Shown: positions 1-7,422 of the stretch, piece by piece | Numbering within the stretch: the stretch's first letter is position 1 | How the letters are laid out: every line of letters starts with the position of its first letter | Assembly (NCBI GenBank): GCA_964565125.1 | Contig: CAZMCX010000036.1 | Location: 1 to 7,422, forward strand | DNA: 7,422 bases | Direction of reading: 5' to 3' | Source: an uncultured archaeon | GTDB taxonomy: Archaea > Iainarchaeota > Iainarchaeia > Iainarchaeales > 0-14-0-20-30-16 | Program-made: the position numbers and the translations under genes | Notes under the pieces: generated by a model | Database searches by the model: none | What the model saw: only the letters and a program-made list of their open reading frames with translations | What the model was told of the DNA's origin: nothing

Positions 1-3000
1 TTGTCGTTTACCCAAATCTTCATAGTAGAATCATCAACCACAATACAGTACTTGCTACTGCCTCTACTACTATCTCTAAATGCATTCACAATTCCATTAT
101 ATCCAACATCCAGGTAAGTTGGGCTTGGGGTGCTTATTAAGCTGCCAGTATATGACTTGTCTCCCGCACTTATTTTGTATTTCAACTTTCCTCTTTGGGT
201 TTCTAATACATCTGACCAAGATTTATTTGCGTTGGCATAGAACACTGTTGTAGCTTCCCCTGATGCTTGGCCTGTTGATTTCTTGTTGTCTGAACTTACA
301 AGCATTCCTTTTGGAACCCATAAAGCGTTTTGAGATCCGCCATTACTTGTACTGAATTTAAGTTCTCCAACTTTGCTCAAATCAGTTGTAAGCAATGCAA
401 GATATTTTATATTCTTATTATTGATAATTGTACCTTGACTCAAGTCAAATACAACACCATTCAATAGCTTGTCATTATTCTCTTTTACTTCATAGTCGCC
501 CTGGGTACCATCAACGTTCAGATCTGTAGCACTCAATTTGTCAACAACCAATTTTCCCTTGAATGTTATTGTTCTTCCGTGTGTTACAGGAAGTTCTATT
601 GGGAATTTATAGATCATTTTTGTTTTTTCTGTGCCTTCAATCATAGTTGGAACAAACACAAAGTTTCCATCATCTGATTTTTGTATTTCTACAAAGTATG
701 TCCCTGATTTATCCATTGTTTTTCCAGAAATTAATTTTATTCTCTTTGCTGTGTCTATTGTATATCCTGTCATAAAGTTGTCTGCATAGAATTCAGCACC
801 ATACTTTCCTAACATTAGGTTTGCTTTAAATAATACATTTCTCAAATTTGCAGCAGTTAGGTCACCTACTTTTCCATTGTCTCCTAATGCAGTTATAAAT
901 CTTTCAATCTCTAATGGAGTCCAAGGATCATCCGCATAGAATAGCATTACTGTCTGGCCAGTTGAGATACTCTTAGCAACATCATTCCATGTTTTGCCCC
1001 AATTAGCGCTTAGAACATCCGTCATCTTTAAATAACAAGTTGCATCACTATCAATAGATATATAATTTTGCTTTAGTGTTTTACCAGTATTTGCTTTCTT
1101 ACAAACTGTTGCACCGCTTACTTTTACATAGAATCTATTCTTATCTGGATGTTGTACTGTTCCAGTACAAGCACCAGCAGCATCTGTGAAATAACATTTT
1201 GTCATTCCTTCTACTGCACTCTTTGCACTATCTAAATCAATTTTTCCACCCTTAGCCATTGCTTCCATTGAATTTTTTAAAGAACTTAAATCATATTTGT
1301 CAGTAAGGAAGCCAACATATCCCAGTAAAGAATTTTCAGACTTTACAAATCCTTTATCTGTTTTACTTGCTGTCGCAGCTTTACTTACAATATCTTTTAC
1401 TGTTTTTGAAGCCCCTGTAAGCAATCCACTTATATCCTGGTATGCTTTATTCAAAGATGCAGTAAACTGGTATTGATCACAGAAGTATCCTTCTCCTTTG
1501 TAAGGATCTTCTTTTATCTTACAGAATCCATTACTAATAGTGTTTGGTAACCATTCATATTTCACATCAGAGTAAACCTTGTTATTCAAATATAGACCTA
1601 CATTTCCATACAAAGAATAACATTTTGTTTCTGCTTCAGATCCTGCAGTTGTTCCTGCACCACCAGTTTCTTGTTCTTCATCTTTAATCATATCAGTTGT
1701 TATTGTTCCACTACTCTTATCTGCTTTGTTATCTCCGTAAAGATTAGCAGTCAAAGTAAATTGAACTGTTTTTGTAGCTTTAGATCCAGTTTTAATTACT
1801 TTTCCTTGGAAATCAACTTTAACTTGATGTGGCCCTTTAGCTAAAACCATTGGCTTTCTAAACTTTACAGTTATTGTTTGCCCATTAGTACCCGGCACAA
1901 TTGTAACATGGATTTGTTCTACACCATCACTAGTAGGAACATCAGACTCCAAACTTCCAAAGTACTTTATTTTATCCATAGAACCAAAACAGTTCTTACT
2001 TACTTCCATTACAGTAATTGACTCGGAGATATATTCGTTGTTTGAGAACATATCGTTTTTAACATCCTCTGCAACTTTAAGCTGTTCATTTATAAAATTG
2101 CCCCATTCATCAGGTCCACAACCTGGGTCTCCTTCTAAATAATGTCCAGAAAGCTTAGCTGCAAGCCCTAACCAGTTTGCACTATCTTTAATGTAAACCA
2201 ATATTGAAGATGACTTTGGAGTATATGACAAATTATATTTAAATGTCAATAAAGCAGGCATTTTCACAAGAGCTTGTGTCTGTGCTGCAACACCTCTTAA
2301 AGCACTTAAAACATCTGTATTTCCGCTCAAAGTATCTGGGGTTTCTGGTATTTCTTTTCCAGATTTTAAAATATCTGTATTCTTTGAAAACATTACCTGG
2401 AACTTTTCAGCCATTATTCCACTATATGTTGTTGGTTCAGGAGTTCCTATTGTTTTTGCAGTAGCATAGAAAAATTCTGTTGACCCTCCCGCAGGATTTT
2501 TTGGCTGTCCAGTAATCTCATCTATCATTAATAAATTATTATATGCCACGGGCTCTGCTTTATCCATTGTTAAGCCCCTTGCATAACATTTGTTCCACAT
2601 TCTTACAGTTTTATACGCCGGTGTTAAGCCCATATCTGAAAAATCAATTGTTTTTCCGCCTTCAATTACAAAACAATCATTACTTGTCTCGTTCATGAAG
2701 TCTCTTACAATTACAGGTATTTGGCTTATTGGCATCATCAAGCCACTATTCACCCCAGCCATAATATATACTGCATATTGTCCAACTACTGAAGTTGCGC
2801 TTATCTTAAAAGATCCAGTTTGACCTGCTGCCAAGCTAATACTTGGACTCTCAATCCATAACTGAGGCATAGCTTGCAACTCAAGCTGAACAGGGAATTC
2901 ACAGGTATTTCTTATCTGCAATGCAGCCATAGATGGCAATGCAGCTCCACCGTACATCTGGTTTTGGTAGCCCATTCCAGCCCCATAGCCACCCATCATT

Positions 3001-6000
3001 TGTTGTTGTTGCATCATTTGTTGCTGCATTAAAGGGTTATAACCTTGTGTTTGGAATGCCATATTTGGGTTCATAGAATTCATTGCCCAATTGTTCTGAG
3101 CAACCGCACCAGGCCTATTTGCTAATCCTGCGCCCGTCTGAGTAAAATATGGTGTATTAAATACATTATTTCCGCCAAGCATAGAGCCTGCACCTAATGA
3201 GTTCATACCCATCATATTTCCAAATCCCTGACCTGCTCCACTGAAGCCCATCATTCCAAAGTTATTTGCATTCAATATTACAACTGGAACTCCGTTAACT
3301 TGCATTCCGCTTCCTTGGGCAGATACTACTTGTAAACATTTTTTCAAAATAGATATTACAACTTGTGCTTTAGCTTCGCCTTTTACTTCTTGTAATCCGT
3401 TGTTTGTTGGGTTCTGTGCTTTTATTCTTAAAGTTACATCAGATTTACCGCTAACAACATCACCCAATGATATGAAATCAAATGCGATTTCTGTTGTGCC
3501 TGGGGCTAAAACATTTGACGAGGTTCCTGCTTCACTAGATAATGCAACTCCTTTCTTTCCTAATTTAACACTATCTGCATAGAACTCCCCTAATACTTTT
3601 CCTTTCCATACTAATTCCATATTTGGATTATACAAGTAAACATCTTGTGCATTTGATTTACAACTATTTTCTATTTCAAATTGCATTGATGTTTTCTCTT
3701 TTTCTTTTGACATTAGAATCTGCCAGATTTCATCTTCAGTATCAGTTAATGGTTTCAACTTCAAACAATCTGTTGAATCTACTCCACCAGCCAATTTAAT
3801 ATAGAATTTCACTGGCAAGGACATATTCCATTTATAGCCCAAGCCGCTTGCTTCTAATTCTATCATCATTTTTGTTTCAAATTCTTTTGGTTCTAGTAAA
3901 TTCTTCCCCTTTGTTAATTCCGCTTTGTATTCAATACTCATTGTGTTTGTATCGTTTACTAAAAACATTCCGTCATATTTTTTCTTAAAATCAAATTTCA
4001 AGAACTCTTTGAATGCCCCATCTACAACATACAGTTTTGATATCTTCAATTTCAAAGGAGTCAAATTAGTTATATTCAATGATCCTTCTACAATATCACT
4101 TATTGATCTATCCAGGGTTATTGTCAATTCAGGAACATCAGTCATCAATATATTTTCAGAAACAATTATTTCTTGTTCTACTTTCTTATATCCTGATGCC
4201 ATTACTTGTAACATTACCTTTGTTCCAACCCCTAAAGCAGGAATATTAAATAATGCAAATCCATCATAATCCGTTTTTACTGAGCTCACTAATTTTCCTT
4301 CAATAAATAAATTTGCCAAAGCATCAGCTATTGGCTCATTTACATCAATACTTACTGCTTTTACACTTAAATTATTTTCAACATATGGAACAATTGTGCT
4401 TGGAACTATATCCAATAACAATTCCTGAGATGGTTGAACATCAACTATCAATGTTCTTTCATAAATTACTGTTCCGTCGTCTCCAGTTAAAGACAATTTT
4501 ATAATATTCTGCCCTTCTTTCATTGCCATAAACTCTAAAGTTGCAGACACACTAAAAGAAGAATTCACATTTATTGCACCAACAGAAACAGAAGTTGCTT
4601 TATTTTGTGGACTTACACTTTTTCCACCAATACTAAAGCTTTTTACTTTAAAGTCAATTCCTTTGTTAACGCTTTCTATATTCAAAGTTACATTGGAGTA
4701 TTCTTTTACAGATATACTTTTCATTATTATATCTATATTATATACACCATTCAATTTTGCAAATACATTATCAACAACTTTTTGTTTTGTTCCTTCTCCA
4801 GAAACAACAACTTCAGAACATATTGTTCCAGAACAAACTGCATTTCCCATCTTAAACAAAGTTTGGTTTGTTTTTGCATAGAAACCATCTTTATCTGCGC
4901 TTGCTGATGTTCCTAATTCAGAATCAAATGGCTCCCTCACATAAGTTGATCCTTTCTTCAACCAACTTCTATAATTTAAAGACAACAAACTCTTTTCTGC
5001 ACTTGTTGTGTTAAATACCACTTTCACTAAATAATTTCCTGGCTGAACTTTTGTTGTTGATGCTATTGCCCACAGCCCTTCTTTTGAAGTTAGGTTCTGC
5101 ATATCATCTGCAAATCCGTTTGGAGGGCTATAAGTAGTTCCCATTTTTACTGAAGCATTATAGAACTCCAAAGATTTAATATACATCTGTGATTTTTCTA
5201 GTATCAAAGCATCGTCTGCTTTAAAGAATATCCCTAATTCATCATATGCCAAACCTTCTGGAACTCTTAACAAGAAATATGCTAAATAATCAGTTCCCTG
5301 AATTATTGGCTTAGGGCTTGATTCTATCTTGCTTCCTTGCAAATCATAAACAGATATTAAATCCATTCCCAAATTTGCTGGTTTATCATAAATATATCCC
5401 ACTACTTCTTTTGCAATATCTACATTTGCTTGAACTGGCAAACTATAAAATACCGATGTATCTTTTACAATTTTTACGTATACTACCTTATCTGCTCTTA
5501 AAGTGTAATACACACTTCCAGTTTCATCAGTATACAAAGGAGCTTGGTTCAGTTTTACATCAGTAGTAATATCATAAATTGTTATTTCTGCGCCTTGTAC
5601 AGGCAAATTGTCCTTGTTTACTGCTTTTATAGTTAAATCTCCATATCCAATATTCAATTTTACAGTTATAATATTGTTTACCTTTCCACTCAAAGTTATT
5701 GGCTGTGAATCTGCTGAAAAGTTTCCTTTTACTACTTTTACATAGTAGTTCTTTCCTGCACTTAAGTTATTGAAACTCACTCCGCCAGCAACATCTGTTG
5801 TTTTTGTTAGCAATAAAGCTTGCTTGTCAACAGTAAATAACTGAACAGAAGCATTGTAAACAGGCTCATTATCAGTTCCATTTACTAACACCACCAATTC
5901 CGGGCTCTGTTTTATTGGCTTTAAAGTTACTGTGTATACACTTTCAGAAGCAAACAAATTATCCACTTCTTCAAGCATAAAATTTTCTGCATCTATTACA

Positions 6001-7196
6001 AATCTATAAGGAACATTTTCTCCAACATCGTATTGATAAAGTCCTGGTTCAGCCAACTGACCTGTTGCTTCTTCAATATTATTTTTATAAACTTTAATTA
6101 CTGCTTGTTTAACTAGATTTCCTAAGGTATCTTTTATAATCAGCTTTATTGAACCCACTGTTTTTTTGTTCAACTTTATAATTGCGCTTATAGTTTCATC
6201 TGTTCCAACGCCTTTAGTAAAGTTATTTTCAGAGAATGATGGTGCATTTGTGTATTCTGGAGCATAAACCCCCTCTAAATCGCTAACAACAAGATAATAT
6301 GTTGCATCCGAAGGAACTTCCAAAGTAACAACACCAGATGCTTGAGTAATTCCTGATGCTACTTTCAAATTATATTCTGATTTCATTGCTTGAACAGAAG
6401 CATTTGCTTTGGGATTTCCATCCGCATCTAAAACTGTCACATTAATATATCCAAATCCGCCTTTTGCTTCTTCAACAGTTACAAAAGGAGTTACTTCATC
6501 TAAAGAGAATGTTTTTGAAGCATAATTGGGGGATGATAGTGTAACAACTAATTGTCCACAATCTATTGAAATATCATTTAATGTTGCCTTTCCTTCTGAG
6601 GTGCTTACTTCTGCCAAATAATTACTATTATCAGTACAAGTTACCATTGCATCAACATTTCCACTAAATAGTGTCTGGCCTGTTTCATCTTTTCCATCAT
6701 AAAAGAAGATAGTCTTTGATATTACTCCGCCTTTGTATTCCAACTCAATTATGGAGTTCTGTCCATTTTTTTCAATTTTTACTATTTCTTCTAACAACTT
6801 GTAATCGGGGTCTGATATTGCTAAAGGAATTATACTTCCTATATTAGCACCAAAAGAAAGCTTTCCGCTCTTATCTGTAATAACATTTAAAGTTGTTCCA
6901 TTATCAAGCAATATTTTTACTTCTAACCCGTCTACAAGCATATTTCTGCTTATATCCTTAAAAGTTAGGGAAACTGTTGCTTGATCAGGTCCAAAGCCAA
7001 CTGTTAAGGCAACTATACCCCATACAATTAAAGCAAGGATTATCAAACAAAATATCATAAAAACTGGGAAGCCGGCAATTCCTTTATTATGAAGCCAGTC
7101 ATCAACTTTGTACAAAGGGATTCCTTTGGAATCCAACCAATCTAAGAAATTATAGTATTTTTCTTCTAAACCAAAATAGAAATCTTTTAGACCCAT
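1..7196 (-). CDS. Giant membrane-anchored multi-domain cell-surface protein (adhesin-like or envelope-associated). At least 2,398 aa; the 3' end (C-terminus) runs off the window at position 1. No enzymatic motif recognised.
   Basis: Hand translation of the reverse complement starts at ATG 7196..7194 (MGLKDFYFGLEEKYYNFLDWLDSKGIPLYKVDDWLHNKGIAGFPVFMIFCLIILALIVWGIVALTVGFGPDQ...). It stays open for 2,398 codons down to position 3, with 2 nt of the next codon at 2..1 (...SKYCIVVDDSTMKIWVND-). The frame was cross-checked at independent anchors: TTC F43 at 7070, AAT N1311 at 3266, CAG Q1427 at 2918. All satisfy (7196-x) mod 3 = 0. An in-frame TAG lies upstream at 7334..7332. The ATG is preceded by AGGTG with a 7-nt spacer. 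The product is non-repetitive and domain-structured. Arg is encoded only by AGA/AGG; no CGN codon was seen. Confidence 0.93.
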   Translation of the reverse strand, partial: MGLKDFYFGLEEKYYNFLDWLDSKGIPLYKVDDWLHNKGIAGFPVFMIFCLIILALIVWGIVALTVGFGPDQATVSLTFKDISRNMLVDGLEVKILLDNGTTLNVITDKSGKLSFGANIGSIIPLAISDPDYKLLEEIVKIEKNGQNSIIELEYKGGVISKTIFFYDGKDETGQTLFSGNVDAMVTCTDNSNYLAEVSTSEGKATLNDISIDCGQLVVTLSSPNYASKTFSLDEVTPFVTVEEAKGGFGYINVTVLDADGNPKANASVQAMKSEYNLKVASGITQASGVVTLEVPSDATYYLVVSDLEGVYAPEYTNAPSFSENNFTKGVGTDETISAIIKLNKKTVGSIKLIIKDTLGNLVKQAVIKVYKNNIEEATGQLAEPGLYQYDVGENVPYRFVIDAENFMLEEVDNLFASESVYTVTLKPIKQSPELVVLVNGTDNEPVYNASVQLFTVDKQALLLTKTTDVAGGVSFNNLSAGKNYYVKVVKGNFSADSQPITLSGKVNNIITVKLNIGYGDLTIKAVNKDNLPVQGAEITIYDITTDVKLNQAPLYTDETGSVYYTLRADKVVYVKIVKDTSVFYSLPVQANVDIAKEVVGYIYDKPANLGMDLISVYDLQGSKIESSPKPIIQGTDYLAYFLLRVPEGLAYDELGIFFKADDALILEKSQMYIKSLEFYNASVKMGTTYSPPNGFADDMQNLTSKEGLWAIASTTKVQPGNYLVKVVFNTTSAEKSLLSLNYRSWLKKGSTYVREPFDSELGTSASADKDGFYAKTNQTLFKMGNAVCSGTICSEVVVSGEGTKQKVVDNVFAKLNGVYNIDIIMKSISVKEYSNVTLNIESVNKGIDFKVKSFSIGGKSVSPQNKATSVSVGAINVNSSFSVSATLEFMAMKEGQNIIKLSLTGDDGTVIYERTLIVDVQPSQELLLDIVPSTIVPYVENNLSVKAVSIDVNEPIADALANLFIEGKLVSSVKTDYDGFALFNIPALGVGTKVMLQVMASGYKKVEQEIIVSENILMTDVPELTITLDRSISDIVEGSLNITNLTPLKLKISKLYVVDGAFKEFLKFDFKKKYDGMFLVNDTNTMSIEYKAELTKGKNLLEPKEFETKMMIELEASGLGYKWNMSLPVKFYIKLAGGVDSTDCLKLKPLTDTEDEIWQILMSKEKEKTSMQFEIENSCKSNAQDVYLYNPNMELVWKGKVLGEFYADSVKLGKKGVALSSEAGTSSNVLAPGTTEIAFDFISLGDVVSGKSDVTLRIKAQNPTNNGLQEVKGEAKAQVVISILKKCLQVVSAQGSGMQVNGVPVVILNANNFGMMGFSGAGQGFGNMMGMNSLGAGSMLGGNNVFNTPYFTQTGAGLANRPGAVAQNNWAMNSMNPNMAFQTQGYNPLMQQQMMQQQQMMGGYGAGMGYQNQMYGGAALPSMAALQIRNTCEFPVQLELQAMPQLWIESPSISLAAGQTGSFKISATSVVGQYAVYIMAGVNSGLMMPISQIPVIVRDFMNETSNDCFVIEGGKTIDFSDMGLTPAYKTVRMWNKCYARGLTMDKAEPVAYNNLLMIDEITGQPKNPAGGSTEFFYATAKTIGTPEPTTYSGIMAEKFQVMFSKNTDILKSGKEIPETPDTLSGNTDVLSALRGVAAQTQALVKMPALLTFKYNLSYTPKSSSILVYIKDSANWLGLAAKLSGHYLEGDPGCGPDEWGNFINEQLKVAEDVKNDMFSNNEYISESITVMEVSKNCFGSMDKIKYFGSLESDVPTSDGVEQIHVTIVPGTNGQTITVKFRKPMVLAKGPHQVKVDFQGKVIKTGSKATKTVQFTLTANLYGDNKADKSSGTITTDMIKDEEQETGGAGTTAGSEAETKCYSLYGNVGLYLNNKVYSDVKYEWLPNTISNGFCKIKEDPYKGEGYFCDQYQFTASLNKAYQDISGLLTGASKTVKDIVSKAATASKTDKGFVKSENSLLGYVGFLTDKYDLSSLKNSMEAMAKGGKIDLDSAKSAVEGMTKCYFTDAAGACTGTVQHPDKNRFYVKVSGATVCKKANTGKTLKQNYISIDSDATCYLKMTDVLSANWGKTWNDVAKSISTGQTVMLFYADDPWTPLEIERFITALGDNGKVGDLTAANLRNVLFKANLMLGKYGAEFYADNFMTGYTIDTAKRIKLISGKTMDKSGTYFVEIQKSDDGNFVFVPTMIEGTEKTKMIYKFPIELPVTHGRTITFKGKLVVDKLSATDLNVDGTQGDYEVKENNDKLLNGVVFDLSQGTIINNKNIKYLALLTTDLSKVGELKFSTSNGGSQNALWVPKGMLVSSDNKKSTGQASGEATTVFYANANKSWSDVLETQRGKLKYKISAGDKSYTGSLISTPSPTYLDVGYNGIVNAFRDSSRGSSKYCIVVDDSTMKIWVND
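546..1073 (-). other. Copy B (aa 2042-2217) of the same diverged module
   Basis: KQNYISIDSDATCYLKMTDVLSANWGKTWNDVAKSISTG...ADDPWTPLEIERFITAL...GKTMDKSGTYFVEIQKSDDGNFVFVPTMIEGTEKTKMIYKFPIELPVTHGRTITFKGKLV. Landmarks shared with copy A, in the same order: K-x-N, Y-[IL]-K, SANW, AK-x-[SI], [GD]DP, E-x-x-x-FI, MDK...YF, [SD]DG, [IM]-x-GT, [VY]KF, and H-x-x-x-[VI]-x-F-x-GK-[VL]-[IV]. Confidence 0.5.
1794..2240 (-). other. Copy A (aa 1653-1801) of a diverged internally duplicated module of unknown function
   Basis: KYNLSYTPKSSSILVYIKDSANWLGLAAKLSG...EGDPGCGPDEWGNFINEQL...GSMDKIKYFGSLESDVPTSDGVEQIHVTIVPGTNGQTITVKFRKPMVLAKGPHQVKVDFQGKVI. It aligns by eye with copy B. Confidence 0.5.
2586..3767 (-). 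other. Three consecutive Ig/PapD-like beta-sandwich modules, each bracketed by a Cys pair with the signature [DK]-C-h-x-h ... h-x-h-x-N-x-C
   Basis: Pair 1: TDCLKLK (C1144, 3767..3765) and FEIENSC (C1179), 34 residues between. Pair 2: KKCLQVV (C1287, 3338..3336) and LQIRNTC (C1432, 2903..2901), 144 residues between. Pair 3: NDCFVIE (C1508) and VRMWNKC (C1537, 2588..2586), 28 residues between. Downstream strands have a PapD/ASH-like look, for example WIESPSISLAAGQTGSFKISATSVVGQYAVYI. A Cys-less equivalent (GSLNITNLTPLKLKI) lies just upstream at aa 1038-1052. The fold assignment is by eye only. Confidence 0.45.
2916..3266 (-). repeat. Low-complexity, almost uncharged M/Q/G/N-rich (prion-like) segment of the giant protein, aa 1311-1427
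   Basis: Verified codon by codon: NNFGMMGFSGAGQGFGNMMGMNSLGAGSMLGGNNVFNTPYFTQTGAGLANRPGAVAQNNWAMNSMNPNMAFQTQGYNPLMQQQMMQQQQMMGGYGAGMGYQNQMYGGAALPSMAALQ. My counts in 117 aa are 22 G, 17 M, 15 Q and 14 N. R1361 is the only charged residue; there is no D, E, K or H. The rest of the protein is K/D/E-rich. Confidence 0.9.
4152..4433 (-). other. Additional isolated prealbumin-like (CarboxypepD_reg-like) module, aa 922-1015
   Basis: NLSVKAVSIDVNEPIADALANLFIEGKLVSSVKTDYDGFALFNIPALGVGTKVMLQVMASGYKKVEQEIIV carries the same signature, including T-D-x-x-G-x-h-x-h and a terminal S-G-Y. Confidence 0.55.
5397..6980 (-). other. Tandem array of about 6 prealbumin-like (CarboxypepD_reg/PEGA-like) beta-sandwich modules, aa 73-600
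   Basis: A pattern of about 85-90 aa recurs: h-h-V-x-D-x-x-[GN]-x-P-h-x-x-A-x-V...T-D-x-x-G-x-h-x-h...G-x-Y-x-h-x-V-x-x-x-G-[YF]. Examples:
- INVTVLDADGNPKANASVQAM...ASGVVTLEVPSDATYYLVVSDLEGVY
- LVVLVNGTDNEPVYNASVQLF...TDVAGGVSFNNLSAGKNYYVKVVKGNFS
- LTIKAVNKDNLPVQGAEITIY...TDETGSVYYTLRADKVVYVKIVKDTSVF
- IKLIIKDTLGNLVKQAVIKVY...
The family was assigned by eye from this signature. No profile search was run. Confidence 0.6.
6996..7070 (-). other. Single N-terminal transmembrane signal-anchor helix (aa 43-67) of the giant protein
   Basis: FPVFMIFCLIILALIVWGIVALTVGF is about 25 consecutive apolar residues. It follows a 42-aa charged, amphipathic segment, which is too long for a classical Sec n-region. 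I saw no other comparably hydrophobic stretch in the 2,398 aa. The implied topology is N-in, C-out. Confidence 0.85.
7074..7142 (-). other. Duplicated DWLxxKGI motif in the cytoplasmic N-terminal tail (aa 19-27 and 33-41)
   Basis: GAT TGG TTG GAT TCC AAA GGA ATC CCT encodes DWLDSKGIP. GAC TGG CTT CAT AAT AAA GGA ATT GCC encodes DWLHNKGIA. The two copies are 14 aa apart, and the second ends two residues before the TM helix. Confidence 0.7.
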
Positions 7197-7203
7197 AACA
7201 TCA

Positions 7204-7208
7204 CACCT
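7204..7208 (-). promoter_or_regulatory. Shine-Dalgarno-like ribosome-binding site (AGGTG) for the giant CDS
   Basis: The minus strand reads ...GAAATATAGGTGTGATGTTATGGGT. AGGTG (7208->7204) matches the GGAGGTGA core complementary to the 16S 3' end and sits 7 nt upstream of ATG 7196. The nearby ATG at 7201..7199 is out of frame and hits TAA after 4 codons. Confidence 0.6.
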
Positions 7209-7242
7209 ATATTTCAAGTCGTTGTTAAATAGACTACATAAG

Positions 7243-7276
7243 TATTTATATATATTAACTTTAAAAACATATACAA
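7243..7276 (-). promoter_or_regulatory. Candidate promoter. Either an archaeal-type TATA box (TTAATATATATAAATA, 7258->7243) with an A-rich BRE-like flank (AAAG), or a bacterial TTGTAT (-35, 7276->7271) with TATATA (-10).
   Basis: The minus strand reads GATAATTGTATATGTTTTTAAAGTTAATATATATAAATACTTATG. TATATAAA is centred near 7248. A transcription start about 26 nt downstream (near 7222) would give a leader of about 26 nt containing the SD. Under a sigma70 reading, TTGTAT lies 16 or 18 nt from TATATA. The sequence does not distinguish the two models. Confidence 0.4.
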
Positions 7277-7338
7277 TTATCTTTCTGTCGCAATAACAGG
7301 TAATGATTCTTAAGTCGAAGCTGGTGACAAGCTAATTT

Positions 7339-7422
7339 TCAAACCTTGTTCTTTATAAATATGTTATTTTTTCTTAAATATGTATAAACCGTTTTATTTT
7401 TATTAATCATTTCAAACCCCCC
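7339..7422 (-). CDS. Possible 3' tail of an upstream co-directional gene, open from the right window edge. Alternatively a 23-aa basic mini-ORF starting at ATG 7410.
   Basis: The minus frame from 7422 reads GGG GGG TTT GAA ATG ATT AAT AAA AAT AAA ACG GTT TAT ACA TAT TTA AGA AAA AAT AAC ATA TTT ATA AAG AAC AAG GTT TGA, with the stop at 7341..7339. That is 27 sense codons with no stop in stop-rich AT-rich DNA. A G6 run lies 6 nt before the internal ATG. The frame is too short for any homology or composition argument. Confidence 0.25.
   Translation of the reverse strand, partial: GGFEMINKNKTVYTYLRKNNIFIKNKV

Follow-up and report, generated by a model that had tools for sequence, protein, structure and literature searches.

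A giant N-terminally anchored β-sandwich protein of an Iainarchaeota archaeon as a candidate stalk-and-head surface adhesin

What kind of protein is encoded by a single gene that fills nearly a whole contig of an uncultured archaeon is the question raised by contig CAZMCX010000036.1, a fragment of an Iainarchaeota genome assembly. The stretch analysed here, 7,422 nt with 34% G+C (hereafter the window), is almost filled by a single, very long open frame of the minus strand. We assign its product to an unnamed Iainarchaeota family of giant N-terminally anchored proteins, as judged from its sequence: it has the family's N-terminal tail and transmembrane (TM) helix, the ectodomain of ~1,300 residues and a diverged copy of the C-terminal head domain. 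A stalk-and-head surface adhesin or contact protein is proposed as its most likely function, with a little better than even confidence.

From the ATG at position 7196 the frame runs for 2,398 codons without a stop, the last full codon ending at position 3, exactly as given in the preliminary description of this stretch, which had been made from the letters alone. The other five reading frames contain 79-283 stops each, and the frame is also open for the 45 codons upstream of the ATG, extending from about 7331 to the left window edge. With the base composition of the coding strand a stop is expected every ~12 codons, and the probability of finding none in 2,398 codons is ~1e-91. Among 5.8 billion protein clusters, the closest protein is GenBank MDD4983670.1 (P0001 below), a full-length 2,570-aa protein from a metagenome-assembled genome (MAG) of Ca. 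Ainarchaeum sp., annotated as 'carboxypeptidase-like regulatory domain-containing protein'; it shares 80% amino acid identity and full collinearity with the window protein. At the nucleotide level the window and the P0001 locus (L001) are 81.5% identical and collinear over 7,346 nt. The P0001 gene was also recovered independently from a raw run and is available in two assemblies (NCBI and Logan). A short contig that terminates inside the gene, with 144 nt at its upstream end that lack synteny with L001, might raise the suspicion of an assembly chimera or of an open frame that is non-coding or decayed. Collinearity with two independent orthologue assemblies argues against a chimera, the dN/dS ratio (Nei-Gojobori) between the window and P0001 is 0.17 over 2,381 aligned codons and spans the entire length, all 21 Cys residues are kept in P0001, and TRF and direct-repeat searches of the window found no tandem or direct DNA repeats able to cause mis-assembly. 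For practical purposes an artefact can be ruled out: the gene is genuine, and purifying selection acts on it. Nor is it unique, since besides the P0001 orthologue there are at least 778 family clusters at 50% identity. The transfer RNA and Rfam scans of the window gave no match, and an exact 48-mer from it matched nothing in the JGI metagenome or IMG/VR collections.

The gene had been called still incomplete, and it does run off the window edge, but little of it is missing. P0001 extends 172 aa past that edge with a Ser/Ala/Asn-rich linker and a ~110-aa Cys-containing end domain, terminating in ...KVAYIPC; its last 250 aa contain no hydrophobic segment (Kyte-Doolittle maximum 1.15). A third subfamily member, L086 (L086:1-1936, JGI Ga0257142_1009256), is 47-49% identical over the head and ends in ...IWANDNWAMGTN followed by a stop, ~8 residues past the window edge, so that the window already covers essentially the whole conserved protein. 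Directly after it begins the next gene, a tandem paralogue with the start MGLRDFYYKL. L086 is the sole further member of the subfamily found besides P0001, and its head is interrupted by a frameshift, due either to a sequencing error or to its being a pseudogene. The C-terminal end domains that had been hoped for once the gene was completed (PGF-CTERM, LPXTG, S-layer homology) are all absent from full-length P0001.

The N-terminus from ATG 7196 reads MGLKDFYFGLEEKYY..., and the MGLKDFY... start that it shares with its homologues, together with a Shine-Dalgarno-like AGGTGTGAT at 7200-7208, 12 nt upstream of the ATG, supports this codon as the start. The family is marked at this end by the tail motif MGLKDFYF.LEDKYY..LD...IP.YK followed by one TM helix, and the window protein has both. 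The tail is identical to that of P0001 in 45 of 45 residues, with a dS of 0.18 against 0.69 overall, and it is the best-conserved segment among distant paralogues (mean identity 49%, against ~20% elsewhere); a hidden Markov model of the motif matches the N-terminus of 70 of the 102 full-length family members. The helix behind it is the sole stretch of the protein with a 19-residue Kyte-Doolittle mean above 1.6, the next highest anywhere being 1.35, and the same N-terminal hydrophobic helix occurs in 98 of 101 full-length relatives. The single N-terminal signal-anchor and very large ectodomain of the preliminary description are in full agreement with this. The first 43 residues are probably cytoplasmic, because a TM helix follows them and the remainder shows a disulfide-type Cys pattern. 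There is no obvious AXA-like site: the conserved 43-aa tail passes into a ~25-aa hydrophobic helix. A class III (prepilin) signal was considered for the giant protein and rejected; the KG preceding the helix is not kept in paralogues (DKVVPSF...), and both the length of the 43-aa tail and its conservation exceed what a leader would show. P0007 (L085:1483-10305), a giant protein of another kind with 2,940 aa, has in common with the window protein only the tail motif (47% identity over 45 aa) and a block corresponding to aa 560-793, its C-terminal half being unrelated; more than one family of giant proteins thus makes use of the tail-plus-anchor module.

The ectodomain begins with a stalk of diverged prealbumin-like β-sandwich modules, a fold that had been recognised from the sequence alone and is borne out by profile comparison. 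Pfam CarboxypepD_reg matches aa 438-514 with an E value of 2e-13; the six modules nearest the membrane are mutually related at 93-97% probability in hhalign, and a seventh lies further out (Table 1). SpaA (PF17802) just passes on one module (24.6 bits against a cut-off of 23.1, aa 430-520), SdrD_B stays under its cut-off over the same residues (E 4.5e-5), the matches of Big_1, bMG3 and MG4 are likewise all below cut-off, and module 7 has weak matches to bMG3 and CarboxypepD_reg. A full-length family profile gave weak matches to prealbumin-fold PDB chains only, namely NOMO2, FAM171A1, the SusC N-terminal domain and a transthyretin-like protein. Between and beyond the modules lie conserved blocks (aa 601-915 and 1015-1292) with no relation to the modules in hhalign; Pfam has no match in aa 601-917 or from aa 1015 onward. 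The first of them contains the conserved Cys pair C788/C793 and has the lowest dN of the ectodomain (0.04); the second, also with a dN of 0.04, contains the pair C1144/C1179 within aa 1140-1292. In BLASTP and phmmer comparisons, the distant relatives P0002-P0006 (2,366-3,126 aa) and the paralogue at L001 match aa 1-1300 with E values of 1e-33 to 1e-115, the identity of P0002-P0006 over this part being 23-27%. Seventeen long relatives carry β-sandwich Pfam families only, CarboxypepD_reg in all 17 and bMG3 in 13.

The weak bMG3 and MG4 matches bring to mind the bacterial α2-macroglobulins with their MG-type β-sandwich modules, and the protein could accordingly be a surface-anchored protease trap of that type. 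The best bMG3 match among the relatives does reach an E value of 4e-14. In the window protein, though, bMG3 scores 17-23 bits (cut-off 34.9) and MG4 14 bits (cut-off 24.7), with E values of 8e-5 to 0.06, all under the gathering score, and the matches fall on generic prealbumin-like modules that match CarboxypepD_reg better and SpaA and Big_1 as well. The CxEQ thioester motif is absent from the window protein and P0001, and neither the window protein nor the 17 relatives match A2M, TED or the receptor-binding domain. Membership in the α2-macroglobulins is effectively refuted, and a protease trap is very improbable.

The stalk is followed by a low-complexity linker in which 23 Gly, 17 Asn, 17 Met, 14 Gln and 14 Ala residues are found among 125, with GxxxG-like spacing, and which has the highest dN/dS of the gene (0.32-0.49). 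Low-complexity stretches of different composition stand at the equivalent place in P0002, P0003 and P0007. Of the disordered insert noted earlier, the low-complexity part stands at aa 1301-1425, and the disorder is a prediction from composition only. The region that comes next (aa 1426-1844) has no Pfam match; it starts with a β-rich module, aa 1426-1547, that is common to P0002 (BLAST E 1e-7) and P0003, and continues into the fastest-evolving stretch of the protein, with aa 1601-1700 only 57% identical to P0001. Over aa 1500-2398 dN is 0.16-0.25, against 0.04-0.08 over aa 70-1300 (~3-fold), while dN/dS remains <0.32 in the distal part, a pattern that would fit an exposed distal end. The C-terminal half had been described as Cys-rich, which is wrong: the whole protein has 21 Cys (0.9% of residues), 13 of them in that half. 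All 20 ectodomain Cys are kept in P0001 and several are invariant across distant paralogues, and such conserved Cys, even in number, would fit an extracellular disulfide-bonded fold.

The C-terminal head is a divergent member of a domain family recognised by YCDATQF...AYLIKDGY..DF...FWWNP, motifs found at the C-termini of P0002-P0006. The window versions are YFCDQYQF ... FKANLMLGKYGAEF ... KIWVND, and invariant columns are common to the window and its relatives. A HMMER profile that included the window sequence, searched against 1.84 billion cluster representatives, matched 778 proteins at E<=1e-3, 497 of them at E<=1e-30. With few exceptions the matched proteins measure 2,300-3,100 aa and have the domain at the very C-terminus; shorter ones look fragmentary. 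Because this first profile included the window, an independent retest of homology used 138 relatives, leaving out the window and P0001. The resulting profile matches aa 1873-2139 with an E value of 2e-5 in a single-target search, and hhalign aligns the three-member subfamily with the 138-sequence alignment collinearly from end to end (85% probability, E 6e-6), whereas the two controls, the query in reverse (P 0.96) and a region next to the head (P 0.57), were negative. These matches and their negative controls establish the window head as a true, strongly diverged family member, remote from the mainstream heads at about 15-20% identity. None of 49 head-family members matches Pfam, and profile searches found no PDB sequence match. 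The preliminary description had suspected that much of the protein lies in undescribed domain space, and the head, like the Pfam-negative part of the ectodomain, agrees with that.

Modelling of the window's own head from a 7-sequence alignment gave a mean predicted local distance difference test score (pLDDT) of 30.8. The head of P0004 (aa 1677-2366), modelled with AlphaFold2 from a 49-sequence alignment, reached a pLDDT of 91.8 and a predicted template modelling score of 0.84. In this model an α/β part occupies the N-terminal side and a large β-rich part the C-terminal side, and an Ig-like domain of seven strands is inserted. In Foldseek searches of this model against PDB and BFVD, only the ~110-residue Ig-like insert was matched, with a query-normalised TM-score <=0.14. 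Mainstream heads have many near-invariant polar and aromatic residues (D280, D289, R397, Y400, D523, D538, W515 and W654 in P0004 numbering). Half of the full-length members (50 of 101) also have a 50-65 aa Gly/Ala-rich, strongly hydrophobic segment (19-residue Kyte-Doolittle mean up to 3.0) ~170-250 aa N-terminal to the head, of a length sufficient for a helical hairpin and flanked by conserved Cys (C.W.EA upstream, DPC/DCHD downstream); examples are P0004 (aa ~1465-1530), P0009, P0011, P0015, P0019, P0020, P0023 and P0026. The segment is absent in the window protein and P0001.

A surface-tethered enzyme or toxin carrier, in which the stalk would present an undescribed hydrolase, glycan-processing or membrane-active head, is compatible with these near-invariant residues, with the well-defined α/β plus β fold that has no known analogue, and with the Cys-flanked hairpin. 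Yet neither the window protein nor the 17 and 49 relatives have a catalytic motif or any enzymatic similarity in Pfam, NCBIfam or PDB, and the window's subfamily lacks most of the invariant head residues together with the hairpin, so this reading is unlikely. The earlier statement that no catalytic signature is recognisable holds, with neither HExxH nor an enzymatic Pfam, NCBIfam or PHROGs match; the whole window protein matches nothing in PHROGs, NCBIfam or the PDB sequences, and the motifs CxEQ (thioester), LPXTG, PGF-CTERM and GGxGxD (repeats-in-toxin, RTX) are likewise absent from it. The sole Walker-A-like string, GDVVSGKS at 1245, is given no weight because it lies in the ectodomain.

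We propose a stalk-and-head protein because an N-terminal anchor is followed by 1,300 residues of conserved β-modules and by a distal 900 residues that evolve about three times faster under purifying selection. The product would be a type II (N-in, C-out) membrane-anchored surface protein, fixed in the membrane of its own cell by the short conserved cytoplasmic tail and the one TM helix. At least seven prealbumin-like modules and four or five conserved β-rich blocks may form a rod reaching tens of nanometres outward, with the Gly/Asn/Met/Gln-rich stretch as a flexible joint after it, followed by a disulfide-stabilised distal part of ~1,000 residues with a lineage-specific head at its tip. The most likely task of this head is to bind a target outside, such as the surface of another cell or a polymer, and the protein probably cooperates with divergent tandem paralogues and perhaps with neighbouring pilin-like proteins.

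Several observations weigh against this proposal. Ligand, partner and localisation are all read from the architecture. The head fold cannot be linked to any known binding module, and the motifs PFYxxPFDGxVG, RQGYG and YWxGAGxCxDF, near-invariant in mainstream heads, are mostly not kept in the window's subfamily, so that the activity of mainstream heads may be altered or lost in it. N-glycosylation sequons show no enrichment (22 against an expected 22.6), and no pilin-like gene lies upstream of the window's gene. Attachment to a host, which the architecture would suggest, is weakened as a specific version of the proposal because Iainarchaeota are reportedly predicted to be less host-dependent than other DPANN archaea. 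The sequons are also unevenly spread: the N-terminal 1,200 residues contain 19 of them, the C-terminal 1,200 only 3.

The distribution of the family was assessed by scanning one genome per species of 185,579 GTDB species with back-translated PFYxxPFDGxVG, which gave 77 loci, every one confirmed as family by tblastn. They come mostly from Ca. Iainarchaeum, AR10 or 'uncultured archaeon' MAGs, several genomes having more than one copy, and include the complete genomes CP010424 (AR10) and CP064981 and three contigs of two MAGs labelled Micrarchaeota. The nearest relatives of the window protein are from Ca. Ainarchaeum, Iainarchaeum and Diapherotrites MAGs, so the early guess of a DPANN source was right; a further family example in GenBank, MFH1255679.1, is a 'hypothetical protein' of an Iainarchaeota/Diapherotrites MAG. 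Two of the loci, L045 (3.5 kb) and L074 (5.1 kb), are true members (tblastn E 1e-53 to 1e-57) on short contigs that the same study binned to a Falkowbacteria genome of the Candidate Phyla Radiation and to a Thaumarchaeota MAG, respectively; they are more likely mis-binned than transferred. No relatives were found in IMG/VR, and a viral origin was therefore dropped. The literature searched holds no description of this giant N-anchored protein family; the family, its cytoplasmic tail, its tandem-paralogue organisation in Iainarchaeota and the head domain were not found described there or in Pfam.

Same-strand arrays of 2-4 giant paralogues are present in six of the seven genomic contexts compared (L001, L003, L004, L005, L083 and L084), the seventh (L085) having a single giant gene adjoining a pilin-like gene; at the orthologous loci L001 and L086 a paralogue directly follows. 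In four of the seven contexts, the genes next to the giant ones encode type-IV-pilin-like proteins of 474-582 aa, whose N-terminus resembles a class III signal ([KR]GF[TN]LFTALV and a hydrophobic stretch). These proteins have no Pfam match and only sub-threshold similarity to ComGF, GspJ and ComGE in NCBIfam. These pilin-like neighbours have a common ADALQ.FNY motif, and the one at L085 shows the N-terminal variant RGFNMFSSIVAIIL. Directly downstream of the giant arrays, L005 (17147-18923) and L083 (16146-17773) each encode, in synteny, a series of four or five multi-TM proteins of small size (84-130 aa); these lack Pfam matches and are clearly homologous between the two loci. A HEPN/nucleotidyltransferase pair resembling a toxin-antitoxin system (L083:15398-16088) directly follows a two-gene giant array.

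Upstream of the window's gene, the putative promoter and 5' leader are nearly identical to those of L001, and the promoter reading relies on the archaeal consensus of TATA box and TFB-recognition element (Table 1). Similarity to L001 breaks off abruptly upstream of 7278, 82 nt before the ATG, and window positions 7279-7422 are unrelated to that orthologous locus. At L001 the giant-gene ATG lies 115 nt behind the end of a gene for a pilin-like protein of 474 aa; since the similarity stops short of that point, this neighbour is missing at the window. The window terminates in CCCCCC on the plus strand, where a contig end or a local rearrangement is possible. Conservation at silent positions is far higher over 6897-7278 than in the remainder of the gene, dS being 0.23 in the first 100 codons against 0.69 gene-wide, for which constraint at the mRNA 5' end, expression signals or recent gene conversion are possible causes.

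Table 1. Features of the window and pilin-like genes at related loci (aa, residues of the window protein; L-numbers, related loci).
Feature	Position	Strand	Residues	Basis or remark
Giant-protein coding sequence	3..7196	-	1-2398	ATG 7196, 2,398 codons; 3' end off window, ~8 to ~172 codons missing
Putative promoter and 5' leader, conserved	7197..7278	-		79/82 nt identical to the upstream region in L001 (coding sequence 81.5%)
A/T-rich TATA-like box, TTAATATATATAAATA	7243-7258	-		62 nt upstream of ATG
TTTTTAAAG preceding the TATA-like box	7259-7267	-		promoter region
Putative cytoplasmic tail with family signature motif, MGLKDFYFGLEEKYYNFLDWLDSKGIPLYKVDDWLHNKGIAGF	7068..7196	-	1-43	sequence conservation
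Single TM signal-anchor helix, PVFMIFCLIILALIVWGIVALTVGF	6993..7067	-	~44-68	Kyte-Doolittle
Six consecutive diverged prealbumin-like (CarboxypepD_reg / bMG-like) β-sandwich modules	5397..6983	-	72-158, 160-243, 246-336, 343-428, 432-516, 518-600	Pfam, hhalign
Conserved central ectodomain block, no family assignment	4452..5396	-	601-915	BLAST-level homology to all family members
Seventh prealbumin-like module	4161..4445	-	918-1012	hhalign 75-97% to modules 1, 3, 4, 5, 6
Two conserved ectodomain blocks	3321..4154	-	1015-1135, 1140-1292	align with all family members
Low-complexity Gly/Asn/Met/Gln/Ala-rich linker	2922..3296	-	1301-1425	composition
Subfamily-specific region	1665..2921	-	1426-1844	mostly aligns to P0001 only
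C-terminal head	3..1664	-	1845-2398 (554 aa)	divergent member of the YCDATQF...AYLIKDGY..DF...FWWNP family
Pilin-like neighbours at related loci	L001:8461-9885; L003:6800-8479 and 8480-9907; L004:8102-9850; L085:10454-11938			

The paralogue arrays and the conserved upstream region also bear on a structural role, the main rival explanation, in which the tandem giant paralogues would form an outer coat or canopy, S-layer-like and held on long stalks, with the heads contacting each other laterally. Tetrabrachion of Staphylothermus provides a precedent of a layer held off the membrane on long stalks. Such a coat would accommodate the membrane anchor, long stalk and globular distal domain, the purely structural domain content, the lineage-wide occurrence of several paralogues of the same architecture per genome, and the well-conserved promoter and leader with low dS in the first 100 codons, which would be compatible with high expression. 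It is harder to reconcile with the N-terminal anchor and long conserved tail, which are unlike the usual archaeal S-layer glycoproteins, with the absence of sequon enrichment, and with a distal half that evolves fastest and is very different between subfamilies, less expected of lattice contacts. We regard a coat as possible but doubtful. Archaeal S-layer glycoproteins usually have a cleaved signal peptide and a C-terminal anchor or PGF-CTERM. Identity with an archaeosortase-processed glycoprotein of that kind was rejected, as the ends of P0001 and L086 show neither PGF nor a C-terminal TM segment, the N-terminus has no obvious AXA-like site of a cleaved signal and sequons occur at the expected number.

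A more elaborate possibility, which we hold to be improbable, is that the family constitutes a DPANN-specific machine for cell-to-cell contact, with a tail-coupled cytoplasmic partner, a gap-spanning stalk, a membrane-inserting element and recognition by head and pilin. The Cys-clamped Gly/Ala-rich hairpin found in half of the relatives could enter the partner membrane from outside, the Gly/Met-rich, glycine-zipper-like linker could serve as the inserting element in the window's subfamily, and the novel head and neighbouring pilin-like proteins could provide recognition.

Giant β-sandwich surface proteins are an already known kind, and the proposed stalk-and-head adhesin was compared with several of them. 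P0001 agrees with the window protein in the tail motif and TM helix, in the order of the modules and in both linker and head; the window protein differs from it in being cut by the contig end and in its upstream neighbour. NOMO, the subunit of the BOS complex of the eukaryotic endoplasmic reticulum, and other prealbumin-fold rods are likewise strings of diverged prealbumin-like modules with a single TM tether, and NOMO appears both in the weak profile matches (NOMO2) and in NOMO1-like Pfam hints in relatives. NOMO itself, however, has a C-terminal anchor and about 1,200 aa, without a low-complexity linker or head, and the likeness goes no further than the generic module fold (E about 2e-3). 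Among Gram-positive surface proteins, MSCRAMM and pilin B-repeats (SdrD B, SpaA) also use prealbumin-like modules as the stalk of a surface adhesin, whereas the window protein has an N-terminal TM anchor and an archaeal host; identity with the sortase-anchored proteins was rejected despite the SpaA match, as the window protein and full-length P0001 have no LPXTG sorting signal. LapA, SiiE and MpIBP, RTX adhesins of Gram-negative bacteria that use the type I secretion system, resemble the proposed protein in having a very long β-sandwich stalk and a distal ligand-binding region and in being tethered to the producer. The window differs from them in lacking near-identical DNA repeats, GGxGxD motifs and a type I secretion signal, its modules being anciently diverged (~20% identity), and this identity was rejected on the lack of repeats and of GGxGxD. 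The SPEARE proteins of Nanohaloarchaeota are likewise giant surface-exposed DPANN proteins with a proposed role in host contact, and are said to carry serine protease, adhesion and restriction-endonuclease domains. No such domains were detected by Pfam or NCBIfam in the window protein or its relatives, and no sequence relationship was found; with serine protease and restriction-endonuclease domains undetected, identity with SPEARE was also rejected.

The gain from the window itself is modest, as it adds one more truncated and rather divergent member, but the lead at the family level is worthwhile. The family is large and has no name, and neither Pfam nor the literature searched includes it; the ~650-residue head of a relative, with a confident in silico fold and no analogue in PDB or the viral set, offers a defined target for work on DPANN surfaces. 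It opens the questions of an adhesive versus an envelope role, of the function of the conserved tail and of the link to the pilin-like neighbours. Iainarchaeota genomes are about 1 Mb in size and the array genes 7-9 kb each; since many of these small genomes keep arrays of 2-4 such genes under selection, the giant proteins are probably central to how these archaea meet their surroundings.

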